From: a virus | Lineage: Duplodnaviria; Heunggongvirae; Uroviricota; Caudoviricetes | IMG/VR virus record: IMGVR_UViG_2541047174_000011 | Strand: one strand, 5' to 3' | DNA: 6,053 nucleotides | In this document: positions 1-5,974 of the stretch, one piece after another | How positions within the stretch are numbered: the stretch's first letter is position 1 | Layout: each line of letters begins with the position of its first letter | Position numbers and translations under genes: made by a program | Notes under the pieces: generated by a model | Told to the model about the DNA's origin: nothing | What the model saw: the letters and a program-made list of their open reading frames with translations, nothing else | Databases searched by the model: none

Positions 1-500
1 AGACATTCGGCACCGGACATCCAGGTTTCATCCGCCAGCATGGCGGCAATTTCATCGGTGGTTTTTCCGGTTTTCTGCGCATAGGCTGGCAACAGTACCG
101 ATTCGACTTTATCCAGCAAATCGGCATAACTGCGCATATCCTCAGCATCCCCGCCACTGAATCCCCATGGCTTATGGATCATCATGAAGGCATTTTCCGG
201 CATAATGACCGTATCACCGGCCATCGCAATCACAGATGCCATCGAGGCGGCAACGCCATCCACATACACGGTAATGGTCGCCCCCTGATTTTTCAGGGCA
301 TTAAAAATGGCGATGCCTTCAAAGACATCGCCACCCGGTGAATTGATATGGAGATTAATGTGGGTGATATCACCCAGTGCATTCAGTTCGCTGACAAACT
401 GCTTCGCGGTAACTCCCCAGAAACCAATCTCGTCATAAATATAAATATCCGCGTCACCCGGCCCCCCAGCTTGCATCCTGAACCAGGATTTATTCTTCAT
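1..500 (-). CDS. Head maturation (prohead) protease, ClpP/S14 family; N-terminal part only, 3' end beyond window start
   Basis: Hand translation of the minus strand from ATG at 500..498 gives MKNKSWFRMQAGGPGDADIYIYDEIGFWGVTAKQFVSELN..., continuing through a ClpP-like serine motif (VDGVAASMASVIAMAG) and His motif (MMIHKPWG). It sits immediately downstream of the portal gene and overlaps the portal stop by 11 nt. Not in the ORF track because it runs off the window. Start codon uncertain (alternative ATG at 476). Confidence 0.8.
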   Translation of the reverse strand, partial: MKNKSWFRMQAGGPGDADIYIYDEIGFWGVTAKQFVSELNALGDITHINLHINSPGGDVFEGIAIFNALKNQGATITVYVDGVAASMASVIAMAGDTVIMPENAFMMIHKPWGFSGGDAEDMRSYADLLDKVESVLLPAYAQKTGKTTDEIAAMLADETWMSGAEC

Positions 501-1992
501 GCTGGCTTTCGGTGTCGCGCTGATACTGTCGTTCAGTTCCGGCACTGTTGCCTCCTTTGTCGTTGACGGGGTCAGTATCAAAGACCAGCCCCAGTCTGCT
601 GTTTTCATCAATTTCAGCCTTGCGGCGACGTTTGACCTCATCCGGATTGCGCCCACCGGCACGCACCCAGTCAGATTCTGTCGCTGCACCACCCCGGATC
701 TGAATTCTCCAGGCTTCAGCTTCCTTAACCGGGTCGATCCACGGCATCACCGGACCGGAATACGTCGCGTTATATAGCGTTTTCATCTCCACATCCGCCG
801 GAATTTTCAGCAGACCTGCCGCAACCACCATATTCAGCCATGTCCGGTACACCGGGCGGGTTACCGCGCCAATAAAACAGTCCTGCAGGATCAGGTAACC
901 ATCCGTGGACTCGACCAGCTCCTGCCGCTGGGCGCTGTAGGTGCCGTTATAGTTACGCGCCGCACTGGAAAAACTCAGACGACTGCCTGCTGCCACTGCA
1001 CGCAACTGGCCGTTGCGGAAAGTTTCAAGGTTGGGATTGGGACGGTCAGATTTGACCATGCCGATATCCTCGCCCTTGCGCAAATCGTCATAAATAATAC
1101 CCGGGGTGATATGGACTTCCCGCTCGGTCTCTTTGATCCCCGGATCTTCATAGTCCTGTCCGTCACCTTTACGGATATACAGTCCCAGCGCCGCAGCAAT
1201 ACGCGCCGCTGTCAGTTCCGCATCCTCATACTCCTTAAGGGCACTGATCCGCATCAGCACCCCCGATAACATGGATGAGCCTCGCGTCTGATGCAGACGA
1301 CGAGTGAACTTCAGGTGGATCATTTTTCCGGCAGCGATTTCTTTCGTATCACTCTGCCGGCCGCTGACCGGATAATTTTTATAAACCAGATATTTTTTCG
1401 GTCTTCCCCACTCATCAAGAAAAACCCCCTGATTCAGTCCGGCGGATTCATCAGTGCGCATGGGAACAAAATCCGGCTCCATCGCCTCAAGCCAGAATGG
1501 CACTCCCGCCGTCCGTTCCAGACCGTTTCCCGCACCACTGACCATCTGCGCAAACACTTCACCATCCCGCAGCCAGGTCCGCAGCAGTAAACGTTCAAGC
1601 ACAGGACGGGTATACTGCCCTGTCACATCCGGACTCACGGACCATTCAGCCCACAAACGGCGGATATCCGCAGCCAGCTCAGCCGCCATTTCCCCGTTTT
1701 TTCGTAATGGCTGAGGCTCCACAATAATTCCCCTGGCACCAATCACCCGCTCTTCCAGCTTGTCAAACACACCAATCACCAGGTCATGATTGATATCCAG
1801 AAAACGGGCCTGCTCCCGCAGGGAAACCGCACCGTATTTACTGAGCTGATCAGCAGAGCGATTTTCCCGCCGGGCTTTATGTGTCCGGGTCGGTTTCACC
1901 GCCTCATAGGCCATGATTAACGCCCTTGAACGCAGTCTGGCTGCTTTCCACCCGGGGGAAAACACGCCGATCACATCATCAATAATTGCCAT
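490..1992 (-). CDS. Portal protein, lambda gpB family
   Basis: 500-aa ORF, about the size of lambda gpB (remembered as 533 aa), in the expected position between the gpW-like gene and the head protease. The ATG start overlaps the upstream gene's TAA stop (TAATG). Confidence 0.9.
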   Translation of the reverse strand: MAIIDDVIGVFSPGWKAARLRSRALIMAYEAVKPTRTHKARRENRSADQLSKYGAVSLREQARFLDINHDLVIGVFDKLEERVIGARGIIVEPQPLRKNGEMAAELAADIRRLWAEWSVSPDVTGQYTRPVLERLLLRTWLRDGEVFAQMVSGAGNGLERTAGVPFWLEAMEPDFVPMRTDESAGLNQGVFLDEWGRPKKYLVYKNYPVSGRQSDTKEIAAGKMIHLKFTRRLHQTRGSSMLSGVLMRISALKEYEDAELTAARIAAALGLYIRKGDGQDYEDPGIKETEREVHITPGIIYDDLRKGEDIGMVKSDRPNPNLETFRNGQLRAVAAGSRLSFSSAARNYNGTYSAQRQELVESTDGYLILQDCFIGAVTRPVYRTWLNMVVAAGLLKIPADVEMKTLYNATYSGPVMPWIDPVKEAEAWRIQIRGGAATESDWVRAGGRNPDEVKRRRKAEIDENSRLGLVFDTDPVNDKGGNSAGTERQYQRDTESQHEE

Positions 1993-2228
1993 TAAAACCT
2001 CGCCAGTTTAAATCCCGGTTTTCCCCGCCTGCGGCTCACCATCGCGGCAAGCCTGCGTTCCCACTCCTGACGTCCGGCGCGGATCTGAGAAAGGCTTTCC
2101 AGCGTCAGTTGCTGCCCGTTGAAGATGACAGACTTTCCCTCCAGTACGGCCATTTCCGCTTCACGGTACCGCTGTATCATTTCTCTGGCTTCTTCTGTGC
2201 TCACAACCAGCCTCCTGATGTTATCCAT
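1992..2228 (-). CDS. Head-tail joining / head completion protein, lambda gpW-like
   Basis: 78-aa ORF between terminase large subunit and portal, as in lambda. C-terminal ...MVSRRRGKPGFKLARF resembles the lambda gpW C-terminus (...QRRRGPAGFYV as remembered). ATG start at 2228..2226 lies 28 nt inside the 3' end of the terminase gene. Confidence 0.75.
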   Translation of the reverse strand: MDNIRRLVVSTEEAREMIQRYREAEMAVLEGKSVIFNGQQLTLESLSQIRAGRQEWERRLAAMVSRRRGKPGFKLARF

Positions 2229-4324
2229 GGATTATCTTCCGCACGCTCCGTCCGCAGTTTTTTCTTCCGGCGACGGCGTTTTTCTGCCCCGGCCGTCAGT
2301 TCCGGGGATACCGTTTCACCAGAACGCTCCTGCGGGAAGACGAGCCACGTTTCCCGCTGTGCCCAGTCCGGTGCGGAGGGCCAGCGGATCTTTTCGTAAC
2401 CATGCAGAACGGCAAGCGCATCCGCATAAACCAGCAGGTCAAACGCTTCGTTAGCGCCCCTGCCCGGTTTTCGCCATTTTCCGTCACTGCCGCGCTCTTC
2501 ATAGGTCAGCTCATCGTAAAACCACCGCCCCAGCCAGTCGGGAAAGTGGATATAGTTCGGCCCTGGTGTGTCACGCCACAGGGCATTATTTACACGATCC
2601 TTAAACGCATCCGTCTGAACCAGCCACAGCGCGACATCGCCACTGGCTCTGGCACGGCGGGCACTTCTGCCGGTATTATCCGGGAAGGTTCGGTTAATCA
2701 GCCTGTCACGGCGAAGTCCATCCCCCTTGAACAGAAACACCCTGTTGCCCAGTCCGTCACTCCGGCAACGACGCCAGAAACGATAGGCGTTATCTGTCAC
2801 CCCGGCTTCCCCTCCCGTATCCACCGCCATGGCCATCAGACGCATGCGCACATCCGGATCAGAAGCCAGCGGCCATGTTTTATGGAACACATCCGTCAGC
2901 AACAAATCCCAGTCCTCCGGATATGCCGCCGGATCAACCGGCAGACTTTCACCGTTGGGACTGCAGCGCAGTGAATGCCGGATGTTGTAGCGATCAACAA
3001 TCCAGCGTTCCCCCTGCTCTCCGTATCCGGTGATCTGCACAACAAAACGGCGATTTTTACCGCCCTGTACGTCAACCGTTGCCTCAATAAAACGCACACC
3101 ATCCGGCACAGATCGCCGGGGAAACGGCTCGGCACGCTGTTCAAGCAGTTCACTTTTACGCTGTTCCGTGGCTGAACGGGGCAGATAGGGTCGTCCGATA
3201 TCGGTGTTCACCACCGCTTTCAGGGTCTCTTCACTGCCGGTTCGCTCATACTCTTCTTCTGCCGCCAGCAGTTTAAAAATCAGTTGTTCCCAGGTCTGAA
3301 ACGCCGCAGCTGGCCCCTCCATCCAAAATGACGCAATCCGGGAGTTTCGTGGCGTTCCGGTGATACTGCCGTCCGCCGCCGCCCGTTCACCTTCACGAAG
3401 CCAGATCCCCTGGTTATTCAGTTCGCGTTTCTGCTCAGGGGCAATCAGCCCGCGACAATGCGGACACATCAGACGGGCAGCCTGACCGGCAGCCACAAAA
3501 TCCGGGTTATTCCGGTATCCGGTCATGTTATCCATCACCGGCTGAAAATATTCCCCGCAGTGCGGACACGGCCAGTACCACCGGCGGCGGTCTCCCCGGT
3601 TATACAGTGACAGGATCCCCGTTGTTGGCGGTGCCTCATGTGCGCCACCACAACGCCATTTGGTATCGGTGATATCCCGCCCCGGTGAACTCTCGACCAG
3701 GGTCATCCCCGAGGACATAAAGGTGGTGGTACGCTTTGAGGCCAGCGTGAAGGCATCCCCTTCCCCGTCCACATTTTCAGGGAAACGGTCATAATCCGTC
3801 AGCGCCACACGACGGTAATCCGAAGAGGAAAAGACGGTGATCGACGGCCAGCCAATCTTCAGGAAGGAGCCGTCAAGAAACATTTTATCGTGGACGTTGT
3901 TGTCATTACGGGAAGGACTGAGGCGCTTGCTGACCTCCGGACTGTGGCGAAACGTCCTGGAAAGACGCGTTCTGGAATGCTCACGCGCCTTCGTCTCAGT
4001 CATCTGCACCACCAGCATATCCGCCGGATCACAGATGATGCCGTACACAATCCAGCCATCAATCAGCCCTTCGGTTTTCCCGGTTCGCGCAGGTCCCACA
4101 AACACCACCGCGTCATATTCACGGGCTGATAATGTATTAATGGGGTCAATCATATAGGGCGTCAGCGATGACTCCCACGGACCGGAAGTATTGGCTCCCC
4201 GTGGAACCCGCATATAACGCCTGATGGCTTCCGCTACTGGTAACCGGCTGGGTGGGCGAAACAGCGAGGCCACTTCGCGCCAGATATCGGATGCGCGGCT
4301 ATGGCTCTCGTTCACCTGATTCAC
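2201..4324 (-). CDS. Terminase large subunit, lambda GpA family
   Basis: 707-aa ORF. N-terminus (...SLFRPPSRLPVAEAI...) is lambda gpA-like. Walker A P-loop VGPARTGKT is encoded at 4073..4096, and two CPHC motifs at 3455..3568. GTG start at 4324..4322 overlaps the small-subunit stop (ATGTGA), with a GAGG 7 nt upstream. Confidence 0.92.
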   Translation of the reverse strand: MNQVNESHSRASDIWREVASLFRPPSRLPVAEAIRRYMRVPRGANTSGPWESSLTPYMIDPINTLSAREYDAVVFVGPARTGKTEGLIDGWIVYGIICDPADMLVVQMTETKAREHSRTRLSRTFRHSPEVSKRLSPSRNDNNVHDKMFLDGSFLKIGWPSITVFSSSDYRRVALTDYDRFPENVDGEGDAFTLASKRTTTFMSSGMTLVESSPGRDITDTKWRCGGAHEAPPTTGILSLYNRGDRRRWYWPCPHCGEYFQPVMDNMTGYRNNPDFVAAGQAARLMCPHCRGLIAPEQKRELNNQGIWLREGERAAADGSITGTPRNSRIASFWMEGPAAAFQTWEQLIFKLLAAEEEYERTGSEETLKAVVNTDIGRPYLPRSATEQRKSELLEQRAEPFPRRSVPDGVRFIEATVDVQGGKNRRFVVQITGYGEQGERWIVDRYNIRHSLRCSPNGESLPVDPAAYPEDWDLLLTDVFHKTWPLASDPDVRMRLMAMAVDTGGEAGVTDNAYRFWRRCRSDGLGNRVFLFKGDGLRRDRLINRTFPDNTGRSARRARASGDVALWLVQTDAFKDRVNNALWRDTPGPNYIHFPDWLGRWFYDELTYEERGSDGKWRKPGRGANEAFDLLVYADALAVLHGYEKIRWPSAPDWAQRETWLVFPQERSGETVSPELTAGAEKRRRRKKKLRTERAEDNPWITSGGWL

Positions 4325-4797
4325 ATATCGGCCTCATCACAACAGTCAATGACTGCCTTTTCCAGTGTGTCGCGGATCTCATCAACCACAATCTGTACTT
4401 CATTCAGTTGTGATGCAGTCCACCCCCTGTCCCTCTCCAGCCGGTCAGGCCAGGTTTCCAGTACCTGAACTATCGCTTTCACCACGACAGAAAAGGACCG
4501 CCTGACATCACTGACTGGCACAAGCTGAACAGTTTCATGCTGAAATTTAAGACGCTCGCGCTCGGACTGATACCATGCCTTACGAGCGTGAGGATCCATA
4601 TCCTCATCTTCGGAAGATGGTGGTTTTTCCAGCAACGAAGTTATCAAATCCGTCAGGAGATACAGTTTTTTCTTTTCATTACTGCCTGGTGCAAGAGGAA
4701 CATCCGCCATTCTGGCGGCAACAGTCTGCCGGTGCAGACCTGAAAGGGCTGCCAGTTGATTAATATTTAACTTCATATTTTTCAGCTCGCCGTCCAT
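4321..4797 (-). CDS. Terminase small subunit, Nu1-like (DNA-recognition subunit)
   Basis: 158-aa ORF directly upstream of and overlapping the large-subunit start. N-terminal MKLNINQLAALSGLHRQTVAARM is helix-turn-helix-like and resembles the lambda Nu1 N-terminus (MEVNKKQLADIFGASIRTIQNW as remembered). ATG at 4797 is preceded by GGAGGG with a 6-nt spacer; an alternative ATG at 4776 is possible. Confidence 0.8.
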   Translation of the reverse strand: MDGELKNMKLNINQLAALSGLHRQTVAARMADVPLAPGSNEKKKLYLLTDLITSLLEKPPSSEDEDMDPHARKAWYQSERERLKFQHETVQLVPVSDVRRSFSVVVKAIVQVLETWPDRLERDRGWTASQLNEVQIVVDEIRDTLEKAVIDCCDEADM

Positions 4798-4889
4798 TTA
4801 CATCCCTCCACATAAACCGCAGAACAGAAGTGACTCTGTTTTTTTGTAAAGAAATGCCGCCATATAAAGATGTCGAACAAAAAACAACC

Positions 4890-4955
4890 ACAATCATCAT
4901 CTTTTTAATACTAACAGCATTAAAAACAACAAGTTACCATCATGATGATGATGAC
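4890..4955. repeat. Inverted repeat in the cosB-like region, candidate terminase small-subunit (R-element) sites flanking an AT-rich spacer
   Basis: ATCATCATC at 4893..4901 and its exact reverse complement GATGATGAT at 4944..4952, separated by 42 bp of AT-rich DNA. A perfect 10-bp palindrome CATCATGATG at 4938..4947 overlaps the right arm. The element lies between the candidate cosN and the small-subunit start. Confidence 0.4.
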
Positions 4956-4982
4956 GATAAAATCACAAAAATGCGCCTTTTT

Positions 4983-5000
4983 CCGCGCCCGCCCGCCCCG
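4983..5000 (-). other. Candidate cosN (cohesive-end nicking site) of the phage genome
   Basis: Minus strand reads ACGGGGCGGGCGGGCGCGGAAAAAGGCGCATTTTTG, against the lambda cos junction ACG|GGGCGGCGACCT|CGCGGGTTTTCGCTATTTATG (from memory); the first 9 nt are identical, followed by a similar GC block and homopolymer run. It lies about 190 bp upstream of the small-subunit start, as in lambda. Exact nick positions cannot be read from sequence. Confidence 0.5.
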
Positions 5001-5033
5001 TGTTCAGGCCCACCCCACCAGGAGGACCCGCAA

Positions 5034-5054
5034 AAATGATAATGGTTATCATTT
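5034..5054. promoter_or_regulatory. Perfect 21-bp palindrome (9-bp arms, 3-bp spacer), Fur-box-like; possible operator or cosQ-side element
   Basis: AAATGATAA-TGG-TTATCATTT. By my hand alignment, 5032..5050 matches the 19-bp Fur consensus GATAATGATAATCATTATC at 15 of 19 positions. It overlaps the ATG at 5036 of a 40-aa plus-strand ORF that follows AGGAGG at 5020..5025. Confidence 0.3.
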
Positions 5055-5258: not shown

Positions 5259-5483
5259 TCAACACACTGGCTGTAATGCAGCGGATACCATGCGGCATTT
5301 AGCGGCATTCATCGTACACTCAACGGTTAGCTCTTCATTCGTGGCATTCACCTGAAAGGTCCTGGAGTGTAATTGCGTACATTTACCACTGAACGAACCT
5401 TCAACAAGAACACGACCACGCTGCAAAATACGGAACGGAATTGTTCCCTGAAAAGGCTTTACGGTTACCAATAATTTCTTCAT
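5259..5483 (-). CDS. Hypothetical small protein (74 aa), function unknown
   Basis: ATG at 5483..5481 is preceded by GGAGAA with a 5-nt spacer and lies 23 nt downstream of the Rz stop. Product MKKLLVTVKPFQGTIPFRILQRGRVLVEGSFSGKCTQLHSRTFQVNATNEELTVECTMNAAKCRMVSAALQPVC has four Cys and no signal peptide or TM segment. The ORF track lists it from an upstream TTG (5501). I do not recognise a family. Confidence 0.45.
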   Translation of the reverse strand: MKKLLVTVKPFQGTIPFRILQRGRVLVEGSFSGKCTQLHSRTFQVNATNEELTVECTMNAAKCRMVSAALQPVC

Positions 5484-5506: not shown

Positions 5507-5974
5507 CTAGTTAATACACTGAGTGCGGATATATTCCTGAAGCATTCTCAATGCTGCCTGGTCGCTGATGATTCCGTCTCTGATACCGAGAACGTTTCGT
5601 CCAGCAACCGGAGAGAGTTCGACGGCGGCATCATTGCCCACGCCGGAGGTGCCGGTGGCTTCACGCACGGTACCGGGGCAGGTGGCGTTGATCCGCAGGC
5701 GCTTACGACCAGCGGCAACATCAGCACGCAGAGTTTCATTTTCAGCTCTCGCATCGGCTAATTCCCTCGAGTATTTTGCATCGAGCGCAGCAACATCACG
5801 CTGGCGCACCTGCATGTCAGTAATGGTGGCATTCGCCTGTTCCAGCTCTCTGGCTTTTTTATCGCGCTGCGCTTTGTAGGTGAGCGCGTTGTCACGGTAA
5901 TGGTTTGTTGCCAGCCACAGCGCACCACAGCCAACCGCCAGGACAATAATCACCACACACAGAACACGGTTCAT
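5507..5974 (-). CDS. Rz: i-spanin Rz (inner-membrane spanin subunit)
   Basis: 155-aa product with N-terminal TM segment ([19 protein letters not shown]) followed by [45 protein letters not shown]..., near-identical in places to lambda Rz ([45 protein letters not shown] as remembered). Confidence 0.9.
5548..5754 (-). CDS. Rz1: o-spanin Rz1 (outer-membrane lipoprotein spanin subunit), fully embedded in Rz in the +1 frame
   Basis: Product [45 protein letters not shown]... has a lipobox (LVVSAC) and a proline-rich mature region, matching lambda Rz1 (MLKLKMMLCVMMLPLVVVGC...CVKPPPPPAW as remembered). Start may be the first Met (5754) or the Met five codons in. Confidence 0.85.

Follow-up and report, generated by a model that had tools for sequence, protein, structure and literature searches.

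Gene content of the locus

The window, by which is meant the whole 6,053-nucleotide stretch of DNA that was analysed (IMG/VR record IMGVR_UViG_2541047174_000011), is organized on its minus strand, where every long open reading frame (ORF) of the ORF list is located. Along this strand, an Rz gene with an embedded Rz1-like ORF (5974..5507, minus strand) is followed by genes for a small terminase subunit (terS, 158 aa, 4321..4797, minus strand) and a large terminase subunit (terL, 707 aa, 2201..4324, minus strand), with a non-coding stretch of 460 bp between Rz and the 158-aa ORF. Next come a gpW-like ORF of 78 aa (2228..1992, minus strand), which belongs to no Pfam family and is classed in PHROGs as a head-tail adaptor, and a 500-aa ORF (1992..490, minus strand) that Pfam assigns to the lambda-family portal proteins. 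This gene content places the window at the lysis-cos-head junction of a lambdoid prophage. The terL reading frame starts with GTG and overlaps the terS stop codon by 4 nt (4321-4324), while 28 nt at the 3' end of terL are shared with the gpW-like ORF (2201-2228). A further ORF of 74 aa between Rz and the cos region (5259-5483, minus strand) matched only positions 100-172 of the 291 in phrog_2571 (E = 2.8e-28), a family with no assigned function; this ORF, which carries no annotation in VT1-Sakai, is probably the leftover of a longer gene.

Megablast comparisons placed the window at 95-98% identity to Stx phages. Its cos region is 99.6% identical to that of VT1-Sakai (Sp15); many complete O157:H7 genomes, e.g., EC4115 and TR01, contain it at 100% identity, and 289 records reach at least 99%.

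Architecture of the probable cos region

The virion DNA of phages with lambda-like cos sites carries 12-base 5' single-stranded extensions, and cosQ is highly conserved among these phages, as are the left half of cosN and the CG pairs that flank it, with bp 7-12 varying freely (Feiss et al., 2015; PMC4669245). In the window, the minus-strand block at 5000..4983, which reads CGGGGCGGGCGGGCGCGG, had been flagged by an earlier note as a parallel of the lambda cos junction, both in its sequence and in its spacing to a Nu1-like start codon. The string is present as quoted, the lambda junction given in the note agrees with NC_001416, from which the lambda ends were taken here, and the likeness extends over an upstream palindrome, cosQ, the flanks of cosN and an I1-like site. 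Positions 5054..4798 of the minus strand are very probably the complete cos of a lambdoid O157:H7 prophage of the VT1-Sakai/Sp15 type, with the flagged block as its cosN, a reading drawn from homology, the order and spacing of elements, gene content and the existence of related records that start at the equivalent base. Both the location and the nature of the site proposed in the note are upheld by this evidence. Apart from lacking one base of the usual 12-base layout, the feature is an ordinary one, namely the cos of an EHEC prophage type that is common.

On the minus strand, the elements occur in the order palindrome, cosQ, cosN, cosB with inverted CATCATCATC repeats around an I1-like site, and terS ATG, which is the order found in lambda and at nearly equal spacing. 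The lambda junction reads ...GATGATAATCATTATCACTTTAC-GGGTCCT-TTCCGGTGATCCGACAGGTTACG / GGGCGGCGACCT / CGCGGGTTTTCGCTATTT (NC_001416), i.e., GGGTCCT and 23 nt ending in ACG, then GGGCGGCGACCT and then CGCGGGTTTTCGC; that of the window reads ...AATGATAACCATTATCATTTTTGC-GGGTCCT-CCTGGTGGGGTGGGCCTGAACACG GGGCGGGCGGGCGCGGAAAAAGGCGCATTT. The palindrome ATGATAAnCATTATCA is present in the window, with an extent of 21 nt, AAATGATAACCATTATCATTT (5034..5054, minus strand); it is located 4 nt upstream of cosQ and complementary at 9/9 positions in a repeat search. Together, the palindrome and cosQ matched lambda by blastn with E = 1e-5, the lambda counterpart being GATGATAATCATTATCAC. The 21-nt palindrome is also kept in mEp213 and the Stx phages, and is missing from cdtI, mEp460 and LLS.

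The cosQ-like heptamer, GGGTCCT (5023..5029, minus strand), is identical at 7/7 positions to that of lambda, in which cosQ is the element for termination of packaging. Its distance from the predicted top-strand nick is 24 nt, compared with 23 nt in lambda. When the window sequence was read again, the stretch at about 5001..4976 (minus strand) was found to be ACGGGGCGGGCGGGCGCGGAAAAAGG, within which cosN (4983..5001, minus strand) can be written ACG / GGGCGGGCGGG(C) / (C)GCGG. The left half, GGGCGG, is identical to that of lambda, and the nine bases formed with its flank, ACGGGGCGG, match at 9/9. To the right lies a conserved flank, CGCGGAAAAAGGCGCATTTTT (4967..4987, minus strand), which was delineated by IMG/VR family tabulations and alignment, and shares CGCGG with its lambda counterpart, CGCGGGTTTTCGCTATTT. 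G+C content is 74% across cosQ-cosN vs 34% downstream of cosN. The claim of lambda-like spacing was likewise confirmed: with position 4998, the predicted first base of the left end, counted as bp 1, terS ATG (4797) begins at bp 202, and Nu1 begins at bp 191 in lambda. In both phages, a gpA-family terL follows.

A single copy of the pattern GGGTCCT-N17-25-ACGGGGCGG is present in the window, compared with none in 200 dinucleotide shuffles of it. Global alignment of 5052..4912 (minus strand) with the lambda cos gave a score of 46, whereas 1000 dinucleotide shuffles gave 7.0 +/- 3.6 with a maximum of 22 (z = 11). These values bear on the view that the G+C-rich block is no packaging site at all, but a chance, regulatory or G-quadruplex sequence or a recombination joint, with headful packaging starting from a pac site elsewhere. 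Although homology between phages does break at or near this spot and the G-rich strand carries several tracts of three to four G residues, this view is very improbable, given the zero chance expectation of the motif, the strength of the alignment to lambda, a large terminase with the very ATPase and endonuclease domains that Pfam defines for lambda gpA, and relatives with annotated cohesive ends at the equivalent position. Nor was any Rfam family, terminator-like site or significant promoter signal found in the cos region. When genome contigs were scanned with GGGTCCT-N17-25-ACGGGGCGG, only chance matches in high-GC genomes were present among the matches listed.

Evidence for a cos site at the equivalent base comes from two related records in particular, with start positions that are depositor annotations. 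In the LLS record, bases 1..12 are annotated as "5' extended single-strand cohesive site GGGCGGCGCGCT" and the right end is ...CCACG; the cdtI record starts with GGGCGGGAGCGT-CGCGGAAAAAGG and ends in ...CCACG, with flanks as in the window. TerS of these phages is 50% (LLS) and about 37% (cdtI) identical to that of the window. More broadly, cdtI, mEp460, Ayreon, LLS, mEp213 and Fels-1 share with the window a homologous TerS (36-58% identity), a gpA-type TerL, cosQ, and the sequence CCACG/GGGCGG..., CGCGG(A/G)A... followed by GGC..TTTTT. They differ from it in having a 12-bp interior between ACG and CGCGG and a cosQ-to-ACG spacer that is 2 nt shorter, and the cosB repeats of cdtI and mEp460 are not those of the window. 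Among more than 200 related sites from two IMG/VR scans, ACG+GGGCGG and CGCGG are kept while the right half of the interior is variable, which is the scheme of conservation that Feiss describes for lambda-like cosN (PMC4669245).

No record in the phage collection was found to start or end at the allele of the window itself. Two apparent termini were rejected. LR595868 (mEp460_4F5), which begins 5 nt ahead of the predicted nick and lacks 3 nt relative to mEp460, is probably a re-oriented assembly; an IMG/VR contig that ends 1 nt before CGGAAAAAGG, the one such end found with a left-end-only pattern, comes from a draft isolate genome and represents an assembly break rather than a virion end. Phage ASU11 is listed with mitomycin C induction as its source. 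Its record (ON416862.2, ~2794) agrees with the window in cosQ and encodes a TerS that is 77% identical, but is without exactly the 44-nt block that holds cosN. This deleted junction occurs in 0/5,426 complete E. coli genomes, and in the only genome that matches both ASU11 flanks, CP027355 (69-112), the 44 nt are present between them. This is most simply explained if the physical ends of ASU11 lie inside the 44-nt block and were lost when the linear assembly was closed; absence of the junction from genomes is as expected if the ends are there and terminal bases were lost in assembly.

Mosaic joints coincide with cos subsites, at window positions 5023 and ~4965 (minus strand). Stx1a phages are window-like from Rz to cosQ and then continue with genuine lambda cosN, cosB and Nu1, while CP-1639 and 1720a-02 are window-like through cosN and then carry another cosB/TerS type.

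Terminase proteins, cosB repeats and packaging specificity

The 158-aa protein was assigned by Pfam to DUF1441 (PF07278) only, with E = 3.8e-48 over residues 10-150 of 158, and matched phrog_141 with E = 6e-66. It belongs with the DUF1441/phrog_141 small terminases, represented here by those of cdtI, mEp460, LLS, Fels-1, Gifsy-2 and VT1-Sakai, on the basis of a full-length profile match and a gene adjacent to terL with a 4-nt overlap. It is not a member of the Pfam Phage_Nu1 family, and BLASTP found no match between it and Nu1. Nevertheless, the two proteins match each other's PHROGs profiles along nearly the full length (window TerS to phrog_57, 1.8e-10; Nu1 to phrog_141, 5.6e-8), and hhalign gave a weak match to Nu1 in the N-terminal helix-turn-helix region (E = 0.0025, probability 12%). 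Because of the cross-matches and the hhalign result, the description of this protein in the earlier note as a divergent Nu1-like small subunit is a fair one. A sequence search of the PDB returned no meaningful match for TerS.

In lambda, 5' cohesive ends are made by gpA. The 707-aa protein contains the ATPase (PF05876, 1.8e-81) and endonuclease (PF20454, 6.2e-84) domains of gpA, is 24% identical to it over nearly the whole length (E = 1e-18), and is the enzyme expected to nick cosN. By these comparisons, the DNA site is far better conserved with lambda than are the proteins that act on it.

The order R3-I1-R2(inverted)-R1 has been described for the cosB of lambda, 21, phi80 and Gifsy-1 (PMC9026076), and is present as a sequence pattern between cosN and terS of the window. 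A putative TerS-binding repeat resembling R3, CGTCATCATCATCATG, lies at 4941..4956 (minus strand), bp 43-58 from the nick, and an R2-like repeat in the opposite orientation, AAGATGATGATTG (reverse complement CAATCATCATCTT), at 4891..4903 (minus strand). The cores of these two elements form a perfect 9-nt inverted repeat, ATCATCATC/GATGATGAT, with 9/9 positions paired in the repeat search. Between them, at 4919..4936 (minus strand), is a putative IHF site, TAACTTGTTGTTTTTAAT, which aligns to TAACTTAATGTTTTTATT of lambda I1, and a weaker R1-like repeat in the orientation of R3, GTTCGACATCTTT, is found at 4866..4878 (minus strand), the place at which Fels-1 has GTTCATCATCTT. The R3-like element, with its CATCATCATC motif, is present at the matching place in Fels-1, LLS and mEp213. 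The repeats are of the CATCATCATC type and are unrelated in sequence to the lambda R elements, which are of the CGTTTCC type, and both they and I1 lie about 8-11 bp nearer cosN than in lambda, where R3 is at bp 50-65 (PMC9026076).

By homology with lambda, TerS dimers of the DUF1441 type would bind the R3 and inverted R2 repeats, with an IHF-induced bend at I1 bringing the two together, and this binding would anchor the gpA-type large terminase on cosN. The predicted nicks would follow ACG on the top strand (4999/4998) and lie ~12 bp rightward on the bottom strand, yielding a G-rich 5' overhang that starts with GGGCGGG. The DNA would then be translocated towards terS, i.e., towards lower window coordinates, until packaging stops on arrival at the following cos in the concatemer, where the final nicking would require cosQ (GGGTCCT, 5029..5023). 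Protein binding, nick positions and overhang length thus enter the cos assignment as predictions.

The earlier note also expected a packaging specificity different from that of lambda, and argued this from the cohesive end. The expectation appears sound, but the argument does not: the terminases of lambda and N15 show no preference between the cosN sites of the two phages, even though these sites have different right halves, and specificity instead resides in the R sequences of cosB and TerS (PMC4669245). Because the CATCATCATC-type R elements and the DUF1441 TerS both differ from those of lambda, the packaging specificity is probably different from that of lambda. Knowledge of the exact cos of this very common O157:H7 prophage type, which Stx1 and Stx2 phages have in common with it, should help in predicting which terminases can package which prophages and satellites of the EHEC pool, in orienting phage genome records and in interpreting analyses of read termini.

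The 11-bp interior and the length of the predicted cohesive end

The interior from ACG to CGCGG is 11 bp in the window but 12 bp in lambda, LLS and cdtI and 10 bp in Stx2_95 and CP-1639, and the cosQ-to-ACG spacer of the window is 1 nt longer than in lambda. With a left flank of CCACG, the interiors of 12 bp are GGGCGGCGCGCT in LLS (right flank CGCGGG), GGGCGGGAGCGT in cdtI (right flank CGCGGAAAAAGG), GGGCGGGAGCGG in mEp460 (CGCGG) and GGGCGGCAGCGG in Fels-1 (CGCGGG), while Gifsy-2 (~310-330), also with CCACG and CGCGGG, has an interior of 14 bp, GGTGGCTTCGGGCT. Where the left flank is ACACG and the right flank CGCGG, the interior is either the 10-bp GGGCGGGCGG, in CP-1639, 1720a-02 and Stx2_95, or the 11-bp GGGCGGGCGGG, in the window, VT1-Sakai and Stx2_12E129_yecE. 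Gifsy-2, in which cosQ is in addition degenerate (AGGTACT), shows the largest departure in the family.

Interiors of 10 and 12 bp both yield CG-12 nt-CG because CGCGG contains two CG pairs, and the sister alleles of these lengths conform to this rule, while an interior of 11 bp fails to do so. In the window allele, CG pairs stand 11 and 13 nt past the left CG and GC stands at 12 nt, so that the lambda-like arrangement of CG flanking both nicks 12 bp apart is absent. The closest relatives with the shorter interior, Stx2_95, KH16-043, Stx2d_112808, CP-1639 and 1720a-02, are identical to the window in cosQ, spacer and left half, but have one G fewer (GGGCGGGCGG-CGCGG), which restores the CG-12 nt-CG reading (GGGCGGGCGGCG). 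TerS is 100% identical to that of the window in Stx2_95 and KH16-043 and 96.8% identical in Stx2d_112808 and Stx2_499, with near-identical cosB in all four; cosB of CP-1639 and 1720a-02 is of another kind, and their TerS is 77% identical to that of the window. Because the 10- and 11-bp alleles are both found with 100% identical TerS and near-identical cosB, the extra G is a polymorphism inside one packaging module. Compensation for the shorter interior by the distance to R3 was considered and ruled out, as a hand count places the R3 core from bp 46 in the window and from bp 45 in Fels-1.

The bottom-strand nick could fall opposite 4988/4987, 4987/4986 or 4986/4985, which would leave a 5' overhang of 11, 12 or 13 nt, i.e., GGGCGGGCGGG, GGGCGGGCGGGC or GGGCGGGCGGGCG; if the register were set as in lambda from cosQ, the overhang could be GGGGCGGGCGGG. 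A 12-nt overhang is the default expectation by analogy with lambda, and the specific end put forward in the earlier note, 5'-GGGCGGGCGGGC, stands as one of these options, its exact boundaries being uncertain because of the 11-bp interior. This sub-hypothesis of the cos reading, in which the nick follows ACG and the stagger is fixed at 12 nt, is a real contender that falls somewhat short of an even chance. According to published descriptions (PMC9026076), the nicks of lambda-like terminases are made by a symmetric TerL pair and are staggered by 12 nt, and the top-strand context of the window, ACG/GGGCGG, is the same as in lambda, LLS and cdtI. Yet the bottom nick would then land in GC/GC instead of beside the conserved CG, which would be kept by an overhang of 11 nt (/CGCGG) or 13 nt (/CGG); counting 23 nt from cosQ, as in lambda, would give GGGGCGGGCGGG instead; and interiors of 10 to 14 bp within the family indicate that the spacing is not rigid. 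A full-text literature search with the candidate 12-mers matched no phage paper.

A second possibility is that the site is a genuine cosN by descent that has been crippled, its 1-bp shortening making it a poor substrate and leaving the prophage packaging-defective, as part of the O157 pool of defective prophages. The shift from CG to GC at position 13-14 that the 11-bp interior entails would agree with this, since flanking CG pairs are highly conserved in lambda-like phages (PMC4669245), as would the classification of Sp15 among prophages with morphogenesis defects, in its case in head genes (PMC2669165). Both terminase ORFs were full-length in only 3/8 distinct IMG/VR loci with the exact allele, a tally by a crude ORF test that carries little weight, as several allele classes with a different terS offset fail it. 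Against these points, the window has intact copies of terS, terL, the gpW-like gene and the portal gene, many complete O157:H7 genomes carry the allele with 100% conservation, the Stx2a phage Stx2_12E129_yecE has it as well, and 11-nt interiors of several different sequences occur at 43/97 subfamily sites in IMG/VR. Furthermore, Sp15 DNA was induced and was present in DNase-protected particles (PMC2669165), although this packaged DNA might have been cut by the terminase of another prophage. A crippled site is therefore improbable. Because lambda tolerates changes of 1-2 bp in the cosN-to-R3 distance (PMC4669245), the 11-bp allele of the window is expected, on this analogy, to be a functional cosN.

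The mildly interesting point is the series of 10, 11, 12 (and 14) bp between the nick flanks; the rest is ordinary. Conceivably, though we consider it doubtful, the overhang in this clade of lambda-like terminases is not fixed at 12 nt, so that the 10-, 11-, 12- and 14-bp alleles would give ends of different lengths or nicks placed off CG. If this were true, local reading of half-sites or distance from cosB, rather than a rigid and symmetric TerL dimer, would determine where the nicks fall. The 10/11/12-bp series that occurs naturally within one packaging module provides a ready test of how the two nicks are placed by lambda-like terminases.

The G-rich strand at window positions 4987-5013 (minus strand) has the form GGGG-T-GGG...GGGG-C-GGG-C-GGG, and the predicted single-stranded overhang would contain three G3 tracts, built from the same unit as a (G3C)4 quadruplex aptamer from the literature.
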